A stretch of 64,000 bases of DNA from Myxococcota bacterium (GCA_036337945.1 JAYZDF010000089.1:5609-69608); one strand, 5' to 3'. Shown: positions 17,610 through 24,794, counted from the first letter of the stretch. Translations and numbers: made by a program. Notes: generated by a model from the letters alone, not told the origin.

Positions 17610-19064
17610 TTGATTTCGGCACCAAATGAAACGCCTGACGACCTCGCGGAAAGATATCGTCAAACACGTGGCTTCGACCTCGCGGAAGTTCGCTTGGTTG
17701 AGTATTTGTCGTCAGACAGAGACCTCTTACCTCATCACGACGCGAATCAGTTGAGATTGATTCTTAACCTGGCGCGTCTGTGGGTACTGGAGCAGGATGA
17801 CGGGTCTTCGCTCGCAGTTGGTCCAAAACTCGGCAGTTTCCGGGAGAAAGCCAGACTGTTTGCCCAGGAAATACGAGACGCTGATACGATGAGCGCGGAA
17901 GAAATGGTCCGACATTCGCGGCAGCTGGAACCGCATTTCAAGGAAGCAAGGCAATCTCTAAAGCGGGAATTTCGCGGTACGATGTCTCCCTCAGAGCTTC
18001 GAAGGGAGCTGTGCAATAAGAGGCTCACGTTAGTCCTAGGTGGTGGAGGAGGCTGCGGTTACGTCCATCTTGGTGCACTCGCACTGCTTGAGGAACTCAA
18101 GATCCGACCCGGACTTGTGGTTGGGAGTAGTCTGGGCTCGATCATGGGTATCTTTCGCTGCATGCACCAGCAGTACAAGGCGGAAATGATTGAAAGAGTG
18201 ACTACTGGATTGAGTTTTAAGAACTTATTTCGAGTTTTAGAGGGACAACCTAGATACGGCCTCCCTGGCACCTTGCGCCTCTACCTCCGGTCGGCCATGG
18301 CCAAATTCTTCATGAACGACAATGCGGAAGTCGTCACTCTCTCCGAGCTCGCTATTCCCTTCATATGCGTAGTGACCGGAGTCCGGCGTGACGTCGTAAA
18401 ATCAGACTTCGCCAAATATGAGCACGAGTTCGCGAAGCGTCTTCGGAGAGGCCCTTTGGGCGCTTTGCTTCATGTTACCGAATTGGTCAAAAGCTGGTCC
18501 ACTCTGATCAAAGATCTGATCATGAGCGGAGGAATCAAACCGATTCCTCTCGGTATGTGCCAAAATAGCCAAACCTTCGATGCACTCGACGCCGTAGGCT
18601 TTTCTTGTTCAGTACCTGCCCTCATCCATTACGATATTCTTCGAGATGACCCCAGGATGCACAATCTGGCTCGTAGCTTGCTCAAAAGCCACAACGTCGA
18701 TCACCTCATAGATGGCGGCATCTCCGCGAACGTTCCGGCTCGATGTGCCTGGGAGGCTGTTCAGCGAGGCCACATAAAAACACGAAATAGCTTCATAATG
18801 GGGCTCGACTGTTTTGCCCCCCAACTTCGCCGAAATATGATCTTTTTGCCCATGATGCGTCTTGCTGCCGAAAATGTGAGCAGGGATCGGCATTTTGCAA
18901 ACTTCATGTTCACCTATCGGAAAGTCCTCTCTCCGGCTTCCCTTATCCCGAACGCACGAAGTCTCCGGCGCGCCATAAATCACGGTAGAGACGAGCTATC
19001 CGCCGAGAAATCCTTTCTAAAGACGATGCTCGAACCTCTAGAGATGCCGAAATTGACCAAGTAA
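17610..19064 (+). CDS. patatin-like phospholipase with N-terminal helical extension
   Basis: Gly-rich oxyanion loop LGGGGGCG, nucleophile GSSLG, DGG motif. Confidence 0.88.
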   Translation: MISAPNETPDDLAERYRQTRGFDLAEVRLVEYLSSDRDLLPHHDANQLRLILNLARLWVLEQDDGSSLAVGPKLGSFREKARLFAQEIRDADTMSAEEMVRHSRQLEPHFKEARQSLKREFRGTMSPSELRRELCNKRLTLVLGGGGGCGYVHLGALALLEELKIRPGLVVGSSLGSIMGIFRCMHQQYKAEMIERVTTGLSFKNLFRVLEGQPRYGLPGTLRLYLRSAMAKFFMNDNAEVVTLSELAIPFICVVTGVRRDVVKSDFAKYEHEFAKRLRRGPLGALLHVTELVKSWSTLIKDLIMSGGIKPIPLGMCQNSQTFDALDAVGFSCSVPALIHYDILRDDPRMHNLARSLLKSHNVDHLIDGGISANVPARCAWEAVQRGHIKTRNSFIMGLDCFAPQLRRNMIFLPMMRLAAENVSRDRHFANFMFTYRKVLSPASLIPNARSLRRAINHGRDELSAEKSFLKTMLEPLEMPKLTK

Positions 19065-19082
19065 AAAAGAAACAAAGCCGAC

Positions 19083-19390
19083 TGTTACATATTTGTTACA
19101 CAAGAAAATATCAGAAAGCATGTACGCTTCTGTAACCTAACGTAATCCTTTTCCTTTCTCCTCACTACTCAAAACCGGAATATATTTTTTTCAAAAAAGT
19201 GACTGTGTTGTGACATCGGTCATTTGACGTATACCGCTAACCACCTGAAATTACTGACACCCCACTGTCAACTGAACATCTGTTCTTTCCAGAGCATCCT
19301 GTTATGACGCACAGAGCCAAAACCTGAAGGAATCCCGCTGGTTACATTGTACTACACCGCCCAACACTTATTATTGGGGGTATATTGACA
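19083..19390 (+). promoter_or_regulatory. AT-rich regulatory region with repeated GTTACA motifs and a TTGACA hexamer
   Basis: TGTTACA at 19083 and 19094 (11-bp period), inverted TGTAAC at 19131, GTTACA at 19341, TTGACA at 19385. Confidence 0.4.
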
Positions 19391-19505
19391 CGGTGAATTC
19401 GAGGTCGATATCGCTGGAGTACGACAGATTCTAGGGATTTAGCGAGCAATAGGGCTTCCTCTAAATCTCGGACATAACAACTGATTTATTCAGGGGGAAT
19501 TTTGT

Positions 19506-20300
19506 ATGGGGCATAAAGAACAACTAGGAATGGTAGACGTAGATGACTGCACTGAAATGCTGAAAGATCTCGTTGAGAAGCATCCGGACTTATTCGGGCA
19601 ATTCCTAGGTCAACTCGACTTATCATGGATTTACCATGAGAATGCGCTGGAAGGCGTCGTAATCACACACGCGGAAATGGAATCGGCACTGAAGGGCCGC
19701 CCGATTGCGCTCGACACCTATTATCCCATTCGAAACCAAAAACTCGGGTTAAGCCTTATTCGAGACATCGCCTCTACTGATGAAGACTTCAAAATCGACC
19801 TCGAGTTGATGCATCGGATAAACCGAGTTTTATCGACCGACGAAAACGGGACTCCAGACGAGCGCGAATATCGAAAATTTATTCCACTGCATCGGACCTA
19901 CTTTCACGAAATCGCTCAGCCAGAGCATATCGAGCAAAAAATGGAGGACCTTGTTCAGTGGGCCAATGACAATATGCCCACCGACGAAAACGCCATTATG
20001 TTCGCTGCGGAGTTTCATCTTCGGTTTATGAAAATCTTCCCATTTTCGAAGCACTCCGGAAAGGTGGGCCGCCTTCTACTGAACCTTATCCTAATGCGTT
20101 ATGGCTACATGCCAGTGATTTTCCACGGAACGGAGCGTCAGCGCTATTATGACACCCTGCGTCATGGACCTCGCCAAATGGAAGACTTCCTGCGAGGAAT
20201 GATGATGAATTGCATCGATAACGCAGAAAAATTCATCGAAAATGAGCTGAAGGAGCGAGAAAAGCGCGAGTTCCGTCAGCGTTTCATGAACGCAGGATAA
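19506..20300 (+). CDS. Fic-domain protein with non-canonical active site
   Basis: Alpha-inh-like YHENALEG; core H..F.KIFPFSKHSGKVGRLL where HPFxDGNGRxxR is expected; RQRYY helix; GGGGGA RBS. Confidence 0.85.
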   Translation: MGHKEQLGMVDVDDCTEMLKDLVEKHPDLFGQFLGQLDLSWIYHENALEGVVITHAEMESALKGRPIALDTYYPIRNQKLGLSLIRDIASTDEDFKIDLELMHRINRVLSTDENGTPDEREYRKFIPLHRTYFHEIAQPEHIEQKMEDLVQWANDNMPTDENAIMFAAEFHLRFMKIFPFSKHSGKVGRLLLNLILMRYGYMPVIFHGTERQRYYDTLRHGPRQMEDFLRGMMMNCIDNAEKFIENELKEREKREFRQRFMNAG

Positions 20301-20337
20301 ACTGGCGATTTATCGCAAAATTCGCAATGCTTGAGCC

Positions 20338-21507
20338 GTGAGGATAATCCGCTCGGCTCAAACAATTGCTCCCTTCGGGGACCTTGTTTGCGACCTGCCC
20401 TTTCTGGACGTCAGCTTTGAACAGTTCAGGCGCAGGGAGGTAGAACAAGCCCGCGTAAACTCAAACGACCTATGCTTCGCCTCTTGGGCCTTTGCTTCCG
20501 CTCCAATTCTCGAGGCTTTTAGACGTCAAACCAAACCCGGAAACCCTTCTCGCCTGTCATTACCGGCCGGTCACGTCAGTCGCAGTTTTCAACCTTTGAG
20601 CAGTATCAAGAGCCAAGATGAACAACTCCTATTCGACATATTTATTTATGCTGACCCGAATGCCTCGCTAGAGGAACTTCGGCAAACCTGCACTCCCGTG
20701 TGCGTCGAAACCGAATCCAAAACAAATATACGCCAGCTGCCTCGTATAGGTTCAGGGCCGTCTGAGGTTGAATATCCGATTGATGGACGCCTCGCCGTTC
20801 ACCTTCATCACTGGGTTCATTTACTTTGGGCTATTCCGTGCCTTGTACCGAGACTTCTCAAAAATGCTAGAAATCGTGTTGGGCGTAATGTGACCATTCA
20901 CCCCACGGCTTATCTTGAAAATGCGGTAATTGGAGACAATACCCAAATCGGCGCAGGTTGTTTCATCTCAAATAGCTACATTGGACCAGGCAGCCAACTG
21001 TTTGATTTTACCAAAGTACGCCACAGCGTTTTGGGACATGGAACCCATACCCTGGCAGACGCCAGTTTCTCGCACGTGGTGTCTTTCGGCGGCGCAACAC
21101 TTTCTAATCTGCTACTCCGCGATGTCATACTTGGGCGTAATTGCTTTGTGACTACCGGCGTAATTTTCCAAGATCAGTCCATAGACGAACCTGTTCATGT
21201 CTTGGACGCAGGTAAAGAAGTCAATACCGAGCGTATGGCACTCGGTGGATGCGCGGGCCATGGCTGCGTACTGGGGGCACGCGCGATTATCGCCCCAGGT
21301 CGTGCTCTTCCAAACCGAACCACCATCGTCATGAGACGAGCGGAAGGAGTACACAAAATCTCGCCCGAACACACGAAGATGCCCGTATGTTGGAATGAAG
21401 GGACTCTGACGCCGGCAGCCGAGATGCTCAGCGAAGGTGGAGTCGACGAATTCGAAGATGATCGAAGACTGTACTCTAGAGACAGCAACCCTCAGAGGTA
21501 TGCATGA
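20338..21507 (+). CDS. nucleotidyltransferase-like N-domain + left-handed beta-helix protein (paralog 1)
   Basis: Hexapeptide repeats (VGRNVTIHPTAYLENAVIGDNTQIGAGCFI); HWVHLLW motif. Confidence 0.75.
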   Translation: MRIIRSAQTIAPFGDLVCDLPFLDVSFEQFRRREVEQARVNSNDLCFASWAFASAPILEAFRRQTKPGNPSRLSLPAGHVSRSFQPLSSIKSQDEQLLFDIFIYADPNASLEELRQTCTPVCVETESKTNIRQLPRIGSGPSEVEYPIDGRLAVHLHHWVHLLWAIPCLVPRLLKNARNRVGRNVTIHPTAYLENAVIGDNTQIGAGCFISNSYIGPGSQLFDFTKVRHSVLGHGTHTLADASFSHVVSFGGATLSNLLLRDVILGRNCFVTTGVIFQDQSIDEPVHVLDAGKEVNTERMALGGCAGHGCVLGARAIIAPGRALPNRTTIVMRRAEGVHKISPEHTKMPVCWNEGTLTPAAEMLSEGGVDEFEDDRRLYSRDSNPQRYA

Positions 21508-22808
21508 TGGCAAGTTCGGGAAGATATAAGGGTCGAATGGTCGTCCTGCGAACAGATACGGTGATTACTCCGTTCAACGAACACCCACGTTTATCAATAT
21601 TCACAGATCAGACGATTGAAGCATGGCAACATGACACGGCTTCTAAAAGCAAACTTGAACTCGTGAAAGCAGACTCACCCGAACAGGCGGTAGAACTTCT
21701 TGCTGAGTGCAAGCCAACTCAATTTGGAGTTCTCATTCTAGATCGTCACTTTATTACGCCGAAAATCCTTAAGGACTTTATTCGAGTCTCAAAGAAATCG
21801 GATAGTGAGTGCCTAAGGCTTTCACTCACACGAAACGCGTCCGTCGAGTACACCGAACCGTTACAGACTTTAGACAAAAACGGCGATCGCATCGCACACG
21901 ACATTTACTTCTTTAAAAACAGTCGTTCTGTTTTACCCGCCGACGGAGAATGGCTGAGTGAACTTAGGAAACTCGCAACGTGGATTGACGTCCCCAAAAA
22001 AGAGCTTGTTCGAAATATTCCCTTACCTACAATCGGAGAACGGAAAGCAACAACCATGCGTTATCCAGTGACGACCAGTGTTGTCGTCTCCATAGAACAC
22101 TGGGTGCATATCCTCTGGTTAAATCAACTTTCGTTTGGAATAAGATGGGTGGACTTAGTTTTGCGACAACGACCCTTTTGGGCGCTTTTTAAGGCCTTTT
22201 CGGCGCTATCGTTTAATATTGAGAACATTATGAATCGCTTAGTGTCCCGAGGGTCGGGCTGTAAAATTCATCCTACTGCACAAATTTCAGGTTCAATTAT
22301 TGGAAGTGGCGTAACGATTGGACCGAACGTCACGATTAGAAACTCGTACATCTGCCCAAATGCAGTCATCCAAGACCACGCTGTAATCTTGAATTCAGTC
22401 ATTGGAGAAGATGCCCTCGTCCTCGAAAACACGTTTCTCGTTAGCTCCACATGTTATCCGGAATCGACGGTCGGAAATTACAAGCTTCAGGTATCTCTGA
22501 TTGGCCGTGGAGCTTATGTAAATGCCTGGGCAGGCTTCGTTGATGCAAAGTTCGTCGGTTCCGTAAATGTGAGTCATAAAGGAGAATTGACGAGTACAAA
22601 CCGGTCATTTTTGGGCTCAGTAGTTGGACATGGCGCGAAAGTCGCTGCCAAAGTTCTGATCCACCCTGGACGCGAAATTCCAAACGAAACAGTCATTGTC
22701 ATGCGTCCAGACGAAATCGTTTCGGTTGTTCCGGATGATATAGAACCAAATCAGCCGCTCGTTCGGCATGAGGGCACACTTGTTCCTCTTGGAATGGAGA
22801 AATCCTAA
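21504..22808 (+). CDS. nucleotidyltransferase-like N-domain + left-handed beta-helix protein (paralog 2)
   Basis: Hexapeptide repeats (GCKIHPTAQISGSIIGSGVTIGPNVTI); HWVHILW motif; ATGA overlap with paralog 1. Confidence 0.75.
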   Translation: MMASSGRYKGRMVVLRTDTVITPFNEHPRLSIFTDQTIEAWQHDTASKSKLELVKADSPEQAVELLAECKPTQFGVLILDRHFITPKILKDFIRVSKKSDSECLRLSLTRNASVEYTEPLQTLDKNGDRIAHDIYFFKNSRSVLPADGEWLSELRKLATWIDVPKKELVRNIPLPTIGERKATTMRYPVTTSVVVSIEHWVHILWLNQLSFGIRWVDLVLRQRPFWALFKAFSALSFNIENIMNRLVSRGSGCKIHPTAQISGSIIGSGVTIGPNVTIRNSYICPNAVIQDHAVILNSVIGEDALVLENTFLVSSTCYPESTVGNYKLQVSLIGRGAYVNAWAGFVDAKFVGSVNVSHKGELTSTNRSFLGSVVGHGAKVAAKVLIHPGREIPNETVIVMRPDEIVSVVPDDIEPNQPLVRHEGTLVPLGMEKS

Positions 22809-23507
22809 ATGAGTATCGCTTTGATTCCTCTGATACAGAAAGTATTGTTTGCGGGGCTCGTCAGCGGGCAACTTCCGATACCGGACCATGCTCCGATGTC
22901 GATCGCCGAACTAGACAACCTTGGGGAGAAGCTCAAGGCGCGAGTCGTATACGTTACGGCGAAAGAAAAACAACCGCGCACAAGTATCATCTCTGCTCAA
23001 CTTCGGGATGGATTTGGTGTCGCTCTCAATGACAACACCATCGCAATCATGTCGTTGATTGTTCAGAGTTCCGCCGAAATTATGATCCATGGCCCATCTA
23101 GAAAAGCCCTCAAAGGGATCCTGCTCGCCGAGAATCCAAAGTCACGCGTGAGCTTGATTCGTGCAAAAGGGTCTCTGAGTTCTATCGGTTTAGTAGCCTC
23201 TGAGTGGGTTGCCGAGGCACAACTGCAAGTAGGCTTGCCTACCTTCGCCTTGTCGAGCACTCTCGGCAAACCCGAAATCCAAGAATTTTTTCTCACCCAT
23301 ACCGGACTCGAAATAGGCTACGAAGGCACCCCTCGCCTCAACCACCCACTGCAAAATGGGATGCCAGTTTTCAACGCAAGTGCCCAGTGTCTAGGGTTCG
23401 CCCGAGCGGGCTTATGGGATGTAGACAAGAACCTTTTGGTGCCTGCGAAAGCGATACACGAAGCATTCGCAAACGAATCATCACGCCCCAACAGCTCGAA
23501 CCGATAA
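22809..23507 (+). CDS. trypsin/HtrA-fold protein lacking the catalytic triad
   Basis: Aligns by eye to the HtrA protease domain (GFGV, LQVG, GMPVFN...CLGF, LLVP) with H, D and S replaced. Confidence 0.65.
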   Translation: MSIALIPLIQKVLFAGLVSGQLPIPDHAPMSIAELDNLGEKLKARVVYVTAKEKQPRTSIISAQLRDGFGVALNDNTIAIMSLIVQSSAEIMIHGPSRKALKGILLAENPKSRVSLIRAKGSLSSIGLVASEWVAEAQLQVGLPTFALSSTLGKPEIQEFFLTHTGLEIGYEGTPRLNHPLQNGMPVFNASAQCLGFARAGLWDVDKNLLVPAKAIHEAFANESSRPNSSNR

Positions 23508-23723
23508 ATTGACTCTTTCTTCCTTCGTACTGGAAGATTTCCAGCATTTATCTGTCATTTTCATCATTTAGTTCTGAACATCGGCGACTTAACCGTGCTA
23601 CGCCCCATATGTACGGTTGTTGGGTCTTGCCTGGGGGTAAGAAAATCTGCGTTGATGTAGTATAGACTTGACCAGGGGGACCCTGAGGGTTTAGCGCTCA
23701 GCCAACCGAACGGAGTGTACGGA

Positions 23724-24794
23724 ATGGTAGTTGCCCGAAGTAAACCACCTGCTGAATCGAGCCTGCTCGGCCGCTTGAGCCGCCTGAGCGGAGAAAACGG
23801 TAGCGAGACCGTTTCCCGTCGGTTGTCGAACCTAAAGTCGATTCTCACGAAGGACTTAGCTCGAGTTGAGGCTGCCCTCTCCGAAGTCGTAACACCAGAG
23901 CACATTGCGGGTCAAAGCGCATCCCAGCTCCTAAGCTTATCAGGGAAAAGGCTAAGACCACTCTGTGTAGCACTCGCTGCCCGAACCGGGTCAGGCTTCA
24001 ACCCTGCTGCGTTGAACATTGGCGTCGCGGTGGAACTCGTCCATAGCGCGACGCTCCTTCATGATGATGTCGTCGACGTAGGCACCACAAGACGCAACCA
24101 GCCGTGTGCGCGTCTCTTGTACGGAAACGCTGCTGCCATCTTCGGTGGTGATTGGCTGCTTGTAGCTGCTCTGCGACGAGTCATTGCTTCAGGTCTCTCG
24201 GGAGCCGTTGATGAGGTCCTCGACGTCATCGAGAAAATGATTGAGGCCGAAGCGATGCAGCTCGAAGCCCGAGGATCACTTGATTTCGATATCAAGAACT
24301 ACATGAGAATCATCGAAGGCAAAACCGCCGTTCTGTTTCACTGGGCGATGGGGGCTGGAGCTCGTGCTGGCGAACAAACAGATGAAGCCGTCCAAGCACT
24401 CGAGAATTATGGACGAAACCTCGGCCTCGCATTTCAGATTGTCGATGACACACTTGACCTCACTGGAGAGGCAGCGGTCACTGGAAAAGCCTTGTTTACG
24501 GATTTACGTGAAGGAAAAATGACATACCCACTCATCATTGGTGCGCAGAGAGATAAAGGACTCGTTGCGATGCTTGAAGAGGTGAACACTAATGATGCAG
24601 CAGATGAACTTTCGTTGGACCTCAGACACTCCATTCTGGGCAGCCTTGTGAATAGTGGAGCTGTCGAAACATCAATGGCCTTTGCAAGGGACCTCTCAGA
24701 CCAAGCGCGAAAAAGTCTTAGCGCACTCCCTCCAAGCGCCGCCCGGACAGCCCTCGAGCTCGTTGCCGAGGAGGCGCTGCATCGCAAGAGCTAA
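23724..24794 (+). CDS. polyprenyl diphosphate synthase (IspB/HepT-like)
   Basis: GKRLRP, LLHDDVVD..RR, KTA, FQIVDD, DLREGK.T.P. Confidence 0.93.
   Translation: MVVARSKPPAESSLLGRLSRLSGENGSETVSRRLSNLKSILTKDLARVEAALSEVVTPEHIAGQSASQLLSLSGKRLRPLCVALAARTGSGFNPAALNIGVAVELVHSATLLHDDVVDVGTTRRNQPCARLLYGNAAAIFGGDWLLVAALRRVIASGLSGAVDEVLDVIEKMIEAEAMQLEARGSLDFDIKNYMRIIEGKTAVLFHWAMGAGARAGEQTDEAVQALENYGRNLGLAFQIVDDTLDLTGEAAVTGKALFTDLREGKMTYPLIIGAQRDKGLVAMLEEVNTNDAADELSLDLRHSILGSLVNSGAVETSMAFARDLSDQARKSLSALPPSAARTALELVAEEALHRKS

Follow-up and report, generated by a model that had tools for sequence, protein, structure and literature searches.

A four-gene Myxococcota locus of Fic, nucleotidyltransferase-like and HtrA folds without their canonical catalytic motifs: possibly a mosaic of separable modules

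The locus

Here, we describe four adjacent genes, G1 to G4, at positions 19506-23507 of a 64,000-nucleotide (nt) stretch of DNA from a Myxococcota bacterium (G000:C89:5609-69608; hereafter the window), whose source assembly comprises 5.06 Mb in 147 contigs. G1 encodes a Fic-fold protein without the catalytic His (Fic*), G2 and G3 a pair of nucleotidyltransferase-like proteins with a left-handed beta-helix (LbH), and G4 an HtrA-type beta-barrel without a catalytic triad. We lean, with limited confidence, towards reading this locus as a mosaic of three separable modules under selection and not as one dedicated four-gene machine. The genes and their surroundings are as follows.

17610-19064, + strand: patatin-like phospholipase with intact catalytic residues, the conserved upstream neighbor of Fic*
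19065-19505, + strand: intergenic region of 441 nt, whose 3' 200 nt are conserved beyond synonymous sites
19506-20300, + strand: G1 (Fic*), FICD-like Fic-fold protein of putative class II type in which Phe occupies the place of the catalytic His, 264 amino acids (aa), ATG start
20338-21507, + strand: G2, more divergent member of an old tandem nucleotidyltransferase-like plus LbH pair, 389 aa, GTG start
21504-22808, + strand: G3, better conserved member of the pair, with the full nucleotidyltransferase plus LbH fold and no GxGTR loop, 434 aa, ATG start
22809-23507, + strand: G4, PDZ-less HtrA-type (S1C) beta-barrel without the triad, probably exported, 232 aa, ATG start
From 23715: polyprenyl synthase gene, downstream of G4

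A sequence-only reading of this DNA had listed four co-oriented genes, and the junctions are as it described: a 37-nt gap between G1 and G2, an ATGA overlap between G2 and G3, and a TAA stop of G3 that abuts the ATG of G4 (0 nt). Its description of the genes as intact and free of frameshifts also holds, as no internal stop or frameshift was seen in the four reading frames. In databases, the close homologues of these proteins carry the source names "Myxococcota bacterium" or "Deltaproteobacteria bacterium."

A Fic protein without the catalytic histidine

G1 matches the Pfam Fic profile (PF02661) at 48.3 bits against a cut-off of 24, which places it in the Fic/Fido superfamily. Among proteins of solved structure, FICD from human and nematode comes closest (E 7.8e-16 to 1e-13), the human protein being the best sequence match (phmmer E 7.8e-16, residues 40-230). 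The Atlas model of G1 (predicted template modeling score, pTM, 0.85) superposes over residues 8-256 on Fic clusters with template modeling (TM) scores of 0.77-0.85, the cluster named "Huntingtin interacting protein E" being matched at 0.77.

The active site is another matter. When IFPFSKHSGKVGR is aligned on the FICD motif, His is replaced by Phe, Asp by Lys, Gly-Asn by His-Ser, and the first Arg by Lys; in IFPFSKHSGKVGRLLLNLILM, which aligns with the FICD motif region, the last Arg is retained and the GNGR loop has become HSGK. Where a competent Fic AMP-transferase should show HxFx(D/E)GN(G/K)R, G1 reads FPFSKHSGKVGR and does not fit the pattern. The Phe at the catalytic His column is found in 120/120 close homologues. 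We also scanned GTDB with one genome per species and took the motifs from the best 80 loci: 49 have Phe and 30 Tyr at this position, and one (L205) was unread. Because every relative that was read carries Phe or Tyr in place of the catalytic His, Fic* should be unable to transfer AMP by the canonical mechanism. The sequence-only reading of G1 as a Fic fold lacking its catalytic motif is thus borne out by the Pfam and FICD matches and by the uniform His-to-Phe change. In its passages on the Fic motif, PMC4454073 treats the His as invariant and essential, links motif variants to other activities, and considers that Fic clades without key residues may lack AMPylation yet have another function.

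Other parts of the protein are strongly kept. G1 has YHENALEG aligned on YHTVAIEG of FICD, so that the Glu-Gly of the FICD inhibitory helix has a counterpart in G1; within the Fic* family, the Glu (E49) is conserved to at least 90% and the Gly (G50) does not vary. Class II Fic proteins carry an N-terminal inhibitory-helix motif, (S/T)xxxE(G/N); compared residue by residue (H-E-N-A-L-E-G vs. H-T-V-A-I-E-G in FICD), G1 has Glu, not Ser/Thr, at its first position. In addition, the family has invariants of its own (R123, H129, Y132, H134, P139, R211, Q212, and Y214) and an invariant stretch, PLHRxYFHE. Fic* has no signal peptide.

At least 552 of 600 scanned GTDB stretches encode a Fic* relative, including those of the cultured Anaeromyxobacter oryzae, A. 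oryzisoli, and A. terrae, and Fic* is present in 38 of the 41 phylum genomes that were searched, usually without G4. Literature on Myxococcus Fic domains yielded no published account of the Myxococcota Fic*. G1 bears a generic resemblance to the PADLOC Fic models (SoFic, PDC-S04; E 1.6e-18 to 4e-13), PADLOC gave no match for the other four locus proteins, and no defense-system assignment goes beyond this generic similarity. The phylum-wide, chromosomal spread of Fic* argues against a mobile defense island.

Outside the window's family, two conserved gene types recur in the position after Fic*. The first, seen at L132:7008-7694 (-) and L134:1069-1734 (+), comprises open reading frames (ORFs) of 221-228 aa with a common N-terminal sequence type. 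The second, seen at L136:8922-9746 (+), L144:3334-4167 (+), and L145:3815-4648 (+), comprises ORFs of 274-277 aa with another N-terminal sequence type in common, which in two of the three loci overlap the Fic* stop by 4 nt.

The patatin gene and the conserved leader

Upstream of Fic* lies a gene whose product matches Pfam Patatin at 61 bits. Its GGGG oxyanion loop, the Ser of GxSxG (S174), and the DGG motif (D368-G370) are invariant in 23 orthologues. A same-strand patatin gene stands 5' of Fic* in every locus examined within the window's family; it also precedes Fic* in families f8, f9, and f10, in one case with a 4-nt overlap, and in 21 of the 80 best GTDB loci, for which the flanks extended only 3.5 kb.

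The region between the two genes (19065-19505) is 81% identical overall to that of L052, a metagenome contig that carries the patatin gene, G1-G4, and two downstream genes in the same order as the window. From 19305 onward, identity in 40-nt windows is 83-95%, vs. 65-69% at flanking third codon positions, and 19305-19505 contains identical blocks 27-55 nt long. Judging from the two sequences compared, this part probably serves as a promoter, operator, or leader that has been conserved. Rfam gave no match at E <= 1 across 18900-23800, the conserved leader folds unremarkably as RNA (z-score -0.46), and a promoter scan of 19065-19505 found no site on the + strand; overall, promoter and terminator sites were not above the level of shuffled sequences.

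A tandem pair with nucleotidyltransferase-like and beta-helix domains

G2 and G3 are paralogous (28% identity over 346 residues, E 7e-38). Both carry a hexapeptide-repeat beta-helix, with Pfam Hexapep scores of 46.4 bits for G2 and 35.2 bits for G3 against a cut-off of 27, and their sequence matches in Pfam, NCBIfam, and the Protein Data Bank (PDB) are confined to this hexapeptide/LbH part. The best of these are to the LbH domains of GMPPA, eIF2B gamma/epsilon, GlmU, and LpxD. Neither protein matched NTP_transferase (PF00483) at E <= 1; the NCBIfam model Arch_glmU scored 38.8 bits vs. a cut-off of 292, and no NCBIfam acyltransferase model came near its cut-off.

The N-terminal domain becomes visible in the structural model. 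An AlphaFold2 (AF2) model of G3 built from 42 homologues (mean predicted local distance difference test score, pLDDT, 91.5; pTM 0.88) superposes with residues 10-400 on residues 1-385 of ST0452, with a structural superposition score (VIA Z) of 31.5, a root-mean-square deviation (rmsd) of 2.7, 314 aligned positions, and 15% identity. VIA Z is 24.0 to an eIF2B chain, 21-23 to GMPPA/GMPPB and to plant and Leishmania GDP-mannose pyrophosphorylases, and about 20 to GlmU, in which the domain angle is different; residues 252-402 also match a sugar N-acetyltransferase (Z 19.6, rmsd 1.7, 21% identity). The G3 model thus has the architecture of a Rossmann-like nucleotidyltransferase domain followed by an LbH, and G2 shares it by homology to G3.

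What both lack is the Gly-rich loop. After strand 1, G3 reads RTDTVITPFNE and G2 reads SAQTIAPFGD. The N-terminal loops of G2, G3, and the 34 family rows contain neither G.G[TS][RK] nor GG.{0,4}G[TS]R, and the GMPP-type loop is absent from the first 80 residues of all 99 G3 homologues; the sole G.G[TS][RK] match among these 99 lies in the linker of a 251-aa fragment. For comparison, the genuine PF00483 protein P0224 shows GGPQKGTRFRPLS. A profile-profile alignment of the G3 family with P0224 covers 57 beta-helix columns only, so that the comparison of the N-terminal domains is limited to the Gly-rich loop. Judged by sequence, the canonical nucleotide site is gone in both proteins. The sequence-only reading had called both GlmU-like without GxGTR, and the superposition of G3 on ST0452 together with the missing loop agrees with it.

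In a maximum-likelihood tree of the 34 rows, the G2-type genes form a clade of 14 rows (support 100/99) and the G3-type genes one of 15 (support 100/98). The duplication must be old, since each clade contains members of families f1, f3, f6, f7, and f11. Tandem G2-/G3-type pairs occur in f1, f3, and f6, and in the f7 genome the two lie on separate contigs. G2-type proteins have the longer branches, and the G3 profile match to them begins only at about position 60. G2 has lost the G3-invariant polar residues E167, T190, K327, Q329, and D347, which are mostly kept in other paralogues; all three paralogue clades keep W200, H202, H256, G375-H376, and G389, and mostly R390 and N394. A polar cluster in the beta-helix is retained above all in G3, which on this pattern may still be an enzyme. 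LbH acyl- and acetyltransferases are trimers with the acyl-CoA site and a catalytic residue at the subunit interfaces.

The same genome holds two more paralogues with the same altered loop, C101:4029-5264 (-) (L043) and C19:7825-9096 (+) (L044). One of them is flanked by the gene for an Ig-like-repeat protein and by dnaB, with the gene for ribosomal protein L9 close behind; the second is flanked by a TPR protein gene, itself beside an acyl-CoA dehydrogenase gene, and by a gene for an MFS_1_like transporter. The pairing of an LbH gene with MFS_1_like is seen again in G008 (L042). No recurring partner genes of G2-/G3-type genes, substrate-related genes included, were found across other families.

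Metagenome contigs searched with G2 gave one true relative, L052 (88%), and four contigs (L053-L056) with 26-39% identity over a larger part of G2 than the remaining matches. The latter, over about 50-200 beta-helix residues and many of them from gut metagenomes, were set aside as generic beta-helix matches, and L052 alone entered the comparisons. In the Atlas, look-alike clusters of G3 (cosine 0.97-0.98) with Hexapep and GMPPB_C are commonest in Chloroflexota; they are named "hypothetical protein" or "multidrug transporter family protein," and the latter appears to be a misannotation that has spread. Members of the altered nucleotidyltransferase-LbH family may thus occur beyond Myxococcota.

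An HtrA-type barrel without the triad

G4 has no sequence match in Pfam or the PDB, and no match to a PDZ domain. Its AF2 model (pLDDT 89.1) can be placed by structure: the top Foldseek matches are the S1C domain of RsgI9 (7sjy), HtrA1, DegP, and DegS (E 2e-12 to 6e-11), with DegQ also among the structural matches, and VIA superposes residues 30-227 on DegP (Z 21.3, rmsd 2.7, 185 aligned) and on the RsgI9 S1C domain (Z 20.4). The model is an HtrA-type, chymotrypsin-like double beta-barrel. The barrel takes up residues 30-227 of the 232 aa, and no PDZ domain is present.

A word-index search with G4 returned only four close homologues; the family becomes visible by profile and genome searches. 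Against 1.84 billion representatives, the G4 profile matched 105 proteins at E <= 0.001, of which 48 reached E <= 1e-30, and it extends to genuine Trypsin_2 proteins at E 1e-7 to 1e-3. We scanned 28 of the 105 with Pfam: Trypsin_2 was above its cut-off in 19 of 21 weaker matches (E 8e-9 or worse), several of which have PDZ domains, and P0268, a member of the G4 family, also reaches the Trypsin_2 cut-off.

For the triad, 34 rows of the G4 family were aligned with 11 genuine S1C (Trypsin_2) proteins. The proteases read TNxHV, D(I/L)A(V/L)L, and NSGGP, vs. IMSLIV, RVSLIR, and QNGMP in the window's G4, so that the His, Asp, and Ser positions are occupied by Leu, Arg, and Asn and there is no His-Asp-Ser triad. 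This is the trypsin fold without H/D/S of the sequence-only reading, now identified as an HtrA-type barrel. Across the family, the Arg at the Asp position (R113) is invariant and the residues at the His and Ser positions vary. A second alignment, of 22 sequences (the window protein, three close homologues, and 18 family orthologues translated from their loci), shows a conserved family signature in the cleft, GMPVFD...R...WD.

Most orthologues begin with a plain hydrophobic, signal-peptide-like N-terminus. In the window's G4 and the three homologues nearest to it, the N-terminal segment is atypical and the RPWWA(R/K) tail is missing. The suggestion that the protein is possibly exported suits most of the orthologues and is less certain for the window's own G4. 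The C-terminal RPWWA(R/K) is found in 12 of the 18 family orthologues outside the window's clade, e.g., L012:8930-9655 (-), L014:7681-8373 (-), and L017:9734-10489 (+); in five others, RPWW precedes A, G, or T and a short tail, or the motif takes a variant form, and L021 is without it. G4 was detected in all 19 other genomes of the family and in none of 21 phylum genomes outside it.

Selection

The ratio of nonsynonymous to synonymous substitutions (dN/dS) was calculated between the window and L052, the genes compared being 76-94% identical. It is 0.032 for G1, 0.074 for G2, 0.058 for G3, and 0.180 for G4, compared with 0.035 for the patatin gene and 0.035-0.037 for the two downstream housekeeping genes; with dS at 0.8-1.1, close to saturation, these ratios are rough. 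All four genes are under purifying selection. As the losses of catalytic residues are family-wide and selection is purifying, simple decay is excluded, which turns what had earlier been called unlikely from intact frames into a measured result (0.03-0.18).

Conservation of the gene order

Gene order was compared in 19 other genomes of the window's family and 21 phylum genomes outside it. Please note that ORF maps of high-GC loci over-extend the starts, and matched coordinates were used instead. A contiguous Fic-G2-G3-G4 order is found in four of the 19 (G003, G004, G008, and G009) and in the metagenome relative L052. In G010 (L020, G010:C1:820000-839999), about 7.3 kb is inserted between G3 and G2; in G006 (L016/L028, G006:C9), about 14.5 kb separates patatin-Fic from a co-directional G2-G3-G4 block. 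G013 (75% complete) has G3-G4 at a contig end, and in G012 the locus is split by an assembly break. In 11 of the 19, Fic* adjoins G4 without the G2/G3 pair. Among the 12 genomes that lack the pair beside G4, nine are without any G3 relative at E <= 1e-3 in the whole genome, and the remaining three show weak or partial beta-helix matches only.

The reverse separation is also seen. G2-/G3-type genes of f3, f6, f7, and f11 lie away from Fic and G4, and their loci in f3, f6, and f7 contain no Fic or G4 match. Similarly, the genes downstream of Fic* outside the family are varied. Fic* and G4 do not need G2/G3 to function, nor does the pair need Fic* and G4.

A quickly built patatin tree places the pair-bearing genomes as early-branching lineages of the family and gathers nine of ten pair-less genomes in a single group (support 86). 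Fic-G2-G3-G4 may thus represent the ancestral arrangement of the family, from which the pair was lost afterwards; this would take two changes at minimum, on weak supports of 84-90. The expectation that the four genes would be syntenic in related genomes is accordingly half borne out: the order recurs contiguously in four of 19, and 11 are without the pair.

Two observations concern the surroundings of the four genes. A terminator-like hairpin (23530-23544) lies directly 3' of the G4 stop; such sites are no commoner here than in shuffled sequences. DNA runs that match parts of the window carry a seawater or marine metagenome label, with shares of at most 0.47, which is a lead on habitat only.

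Interpretation

Each of the four proteins belongs to a known superfamily, and there are pseudoenzyme precedents for all three folds. In the mosaic that we tend to favor, the first module would comprise the intact patatin phospholipase and Fic*. Fic* would most likely be a binding or regulatory protein that uses the Fic target groove and the partly kept phosphate-binding loop, and the patatin lipase, its most conserved neighbor, is the obvious candidate for its partner. The second module would be the ancient tandem G2/G3 pair, without the Gly-rich loop that binds nucleoside triphosphate. By analogy with GMPPA/GMPPB, eIF2B gamma/epsilon, and GlgD/GlgC, these two probably form a heteromer held together by the beta-helices, in which G3 is the conserved core and G2 the degenerate partner. 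Their ligand would be a sugar-phosphate or an acyl compound; alternatively, G3 would perform acyl transfer in its beta-helix. In neither case would they make a nucleoside diphosphate-sugar. The third module, G4, would be a small, probably periplasmic HtrA-fold pseudoprotease that likely binds a peptide or glycan, or modulates a genuine protease, in the manner of MamO and the RsgI9 S1C domain. In the window's family the three modules appear to be joined in one transcription unit and are probably co-expressed, and many sister genomes would have kept Fic* and G4 after complete loss of G2/G3.

Several points weigh against this picture. The G3 residues H256, H376, R390, N394, K327, Q329, and D347 would fit an active site as well as a ligand site, and the invariant R123, H129, Y132, and H134 in the flap region of Fic* could form a new catalytic center. 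The four-gene order may be ancestral and functionally coupled in the early-branching lineages, and the G2/G3 overlap and the 0-nt gap between G3 and G4 are typical of translationally coupled partners. The location of G4 in the window's organism is uncertain because its signal-peptide region is atypical. Finally, ligand binding, partner binding, and the expression of the four proteins are proposals from sequence and models.

The sequence-only reading had gone further and joined the four proteins into one signaling or scaffolding system, with dead nucleotide-handling folds as ligand sensors and a possibly exported dead protease as peptide receptor; the sensors would sit in the cytoplasm. The overlapping and abutting reading frames, the contiguous order in four sister genomes and L052 with a split order in two more, the early branching of the four-gene genomes on the patatin tree, and purifying selection on all four genes would suit such a system. 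However, Fic* and G4 persist without the pair in 11 of 19 sister genomes, the pair is found elsewhere without either, and Fic* is phylum-wide with varied downstream genes; the "operon" tolerates insertions of 7 kb (G010) and 14 kb (G006), and the signal peptides of most G4 orthologues, set against none in Fic*, would put the proteins in different compartments. We therefore consider a single dedicated system unlikely. At the opposite extreme, decaying pseudogenes or chance frames would account for the missing motifs and for nothing else; low dN/dS (0.03-0.18), hundreds of homologues with identical substitutions, and confident AF2 models of G3 and G4 leave this explanation a negligible probability.

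A more serious alternative is that these are active enzymes with non-canonical chemistry that work on the cell envelope: G3, perhaps with G2, as an LbH acyl- or acetyltransferase, the patatin protein as a lipase, Fic* through other residues, and G4 as a periplasmic binding partner. The patatin protein is catalytically intact, the polar cluster of the G3 beta-helix includes an invariant G375-H376 common to three paralogue clades, and Fic* keeps invariant His and Arg in its flap region. The best structural match of G3, ST0452, was deposited as a sugar-1-phosphate nucleotidyltransferase, and its beta-helix carries acetyltransferase activity; G3 252-402 also matches a sugar N-acetyltransferase (Z 19.6). 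On the other side, the top LbH similarity is to domains of GMPPA and eIF2B gamma/epsilon, which are non-catalytic, no acyltransferase NCBIfam model comes near its cut-off, and no conserved substrate-related genes lie beside the pair. For Fic* the literature cuts both ways: the motif passages of PMC4454073 tie variants to other activities, yet they hold essential the very His that is absent here. Taken together, we judge this alternative possible and rather improbable. It does bear on the word "dead" used earlier for all these folds, which stands for the canonical sites and is too strong for the conserved polar cluster of G3 and the flap His and Arg of Fic*.

Returning to the mosaic, one speculative extension can be mentioned. 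Fic* may have taken on a new role, as regulatory subunit or sensor of the patatin lipase, with G2/G3 and G4 extending this into an envelope-linked lipid-signaling pathway built on retired scaffolds. We regard this as quite improbable.

Significance

Pseudoenzymes are well charted in eukaryotes and poorly in bacteria. The locus offers three uncharacterized, strongly conserved bacterial families of classic folds without the textbook catalytic residues, and no curated NCBIfam model comes near its cut-off for any of the three. Fic* is the most useful lead, being Myxococcota-wide, with Phe or Tyr for the His, and standing repeatedly after an intact patatin gene. As cultured Anaeromyxobacter species carry it and the patatin adjacency recurs, its role is genetically testable. 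G2/G3 would add a bacterial counterpart of the GMPPA- and eIF2B-type regulatory nucleotidyltransferase folds, and with G4 the group of MamO and RsgI9 gains an HtrA-fold pseudoprotease that stands alone. If G3 or Fic* should prove active, they would represent new chemistry on old scaffolds.

Comparison with known systems

Fic* is like the class II Fic protein FICD/HYPE in its whole-length fold and in an N-terminal Glu-Gly that aligns with the one in the FICD inhibitory helix. It differs in having Phe or Tyr for the His, H-[ST]-G-K for GNGR, no TPR region, and its own PLHRxYFHE. With AvrB and clades F3 and D1, as these appear in the relevant passages of Khater and Mohanty 2015 (PMC4454073), it shares a Fido fold without the canonical motif, in variants retained by selection. 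Unlike the host-targeted effectors AvrB and Bartonella BepC, the latter another Fic-fold protein with a degenerate motif, Fic* is chromosomal, phylum-wide, and often found after a patatin gene.

Paired nucleotidyltransferase plus LbH paralogues with a non-catalytic member are also known from GlgD/GlgC. G2/G3 resemble GMPPA/GMPPB and eIF2B gamma/epsilon in their two-domain fold and in being a duplicated pair of which one member is more degenerate. An excerpt of PMC11228364 presents GMPPA as a paralogue without catalytic activity, which binds GDP-mannose and has a regulatory effect on GMPPB. Unlike GMPPA/GMPPB, both G2 and G3 are without the Gly-rich loop, so that no catalytic nucleotidyltransferase partner is evident within the pair. 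G3 is similarly like GlmU and ST0452, the bifunctional sugar-1-phosphate nucleotidyltransferase/acetyltransferase of Sulfolobus tokodaii, in the fold of both domains, and unlike them in having neither a PF00483 match nor the GxGTR loop.

G4 resembles MamO in combining an HtrA/S1C fold with a degenerate active site. MamO is introduced in PMC4794232, in the part that concerns us, as an HtrA-family pseudoprotease with non-catalytic roles, and the S1C domain of RsgI9 appears in the corresponding part of PMC12203970 as a protease-like, cellulose-binding domain. Unlike MamO and RsgI9, G4 stands alone: it has about 230 aa, and PDZ, NTF2, and transmembrane domains are all absent. It is also set apart from both by the invariant Arg at the Asp position and by its own GMPVFD...R...WD signature.

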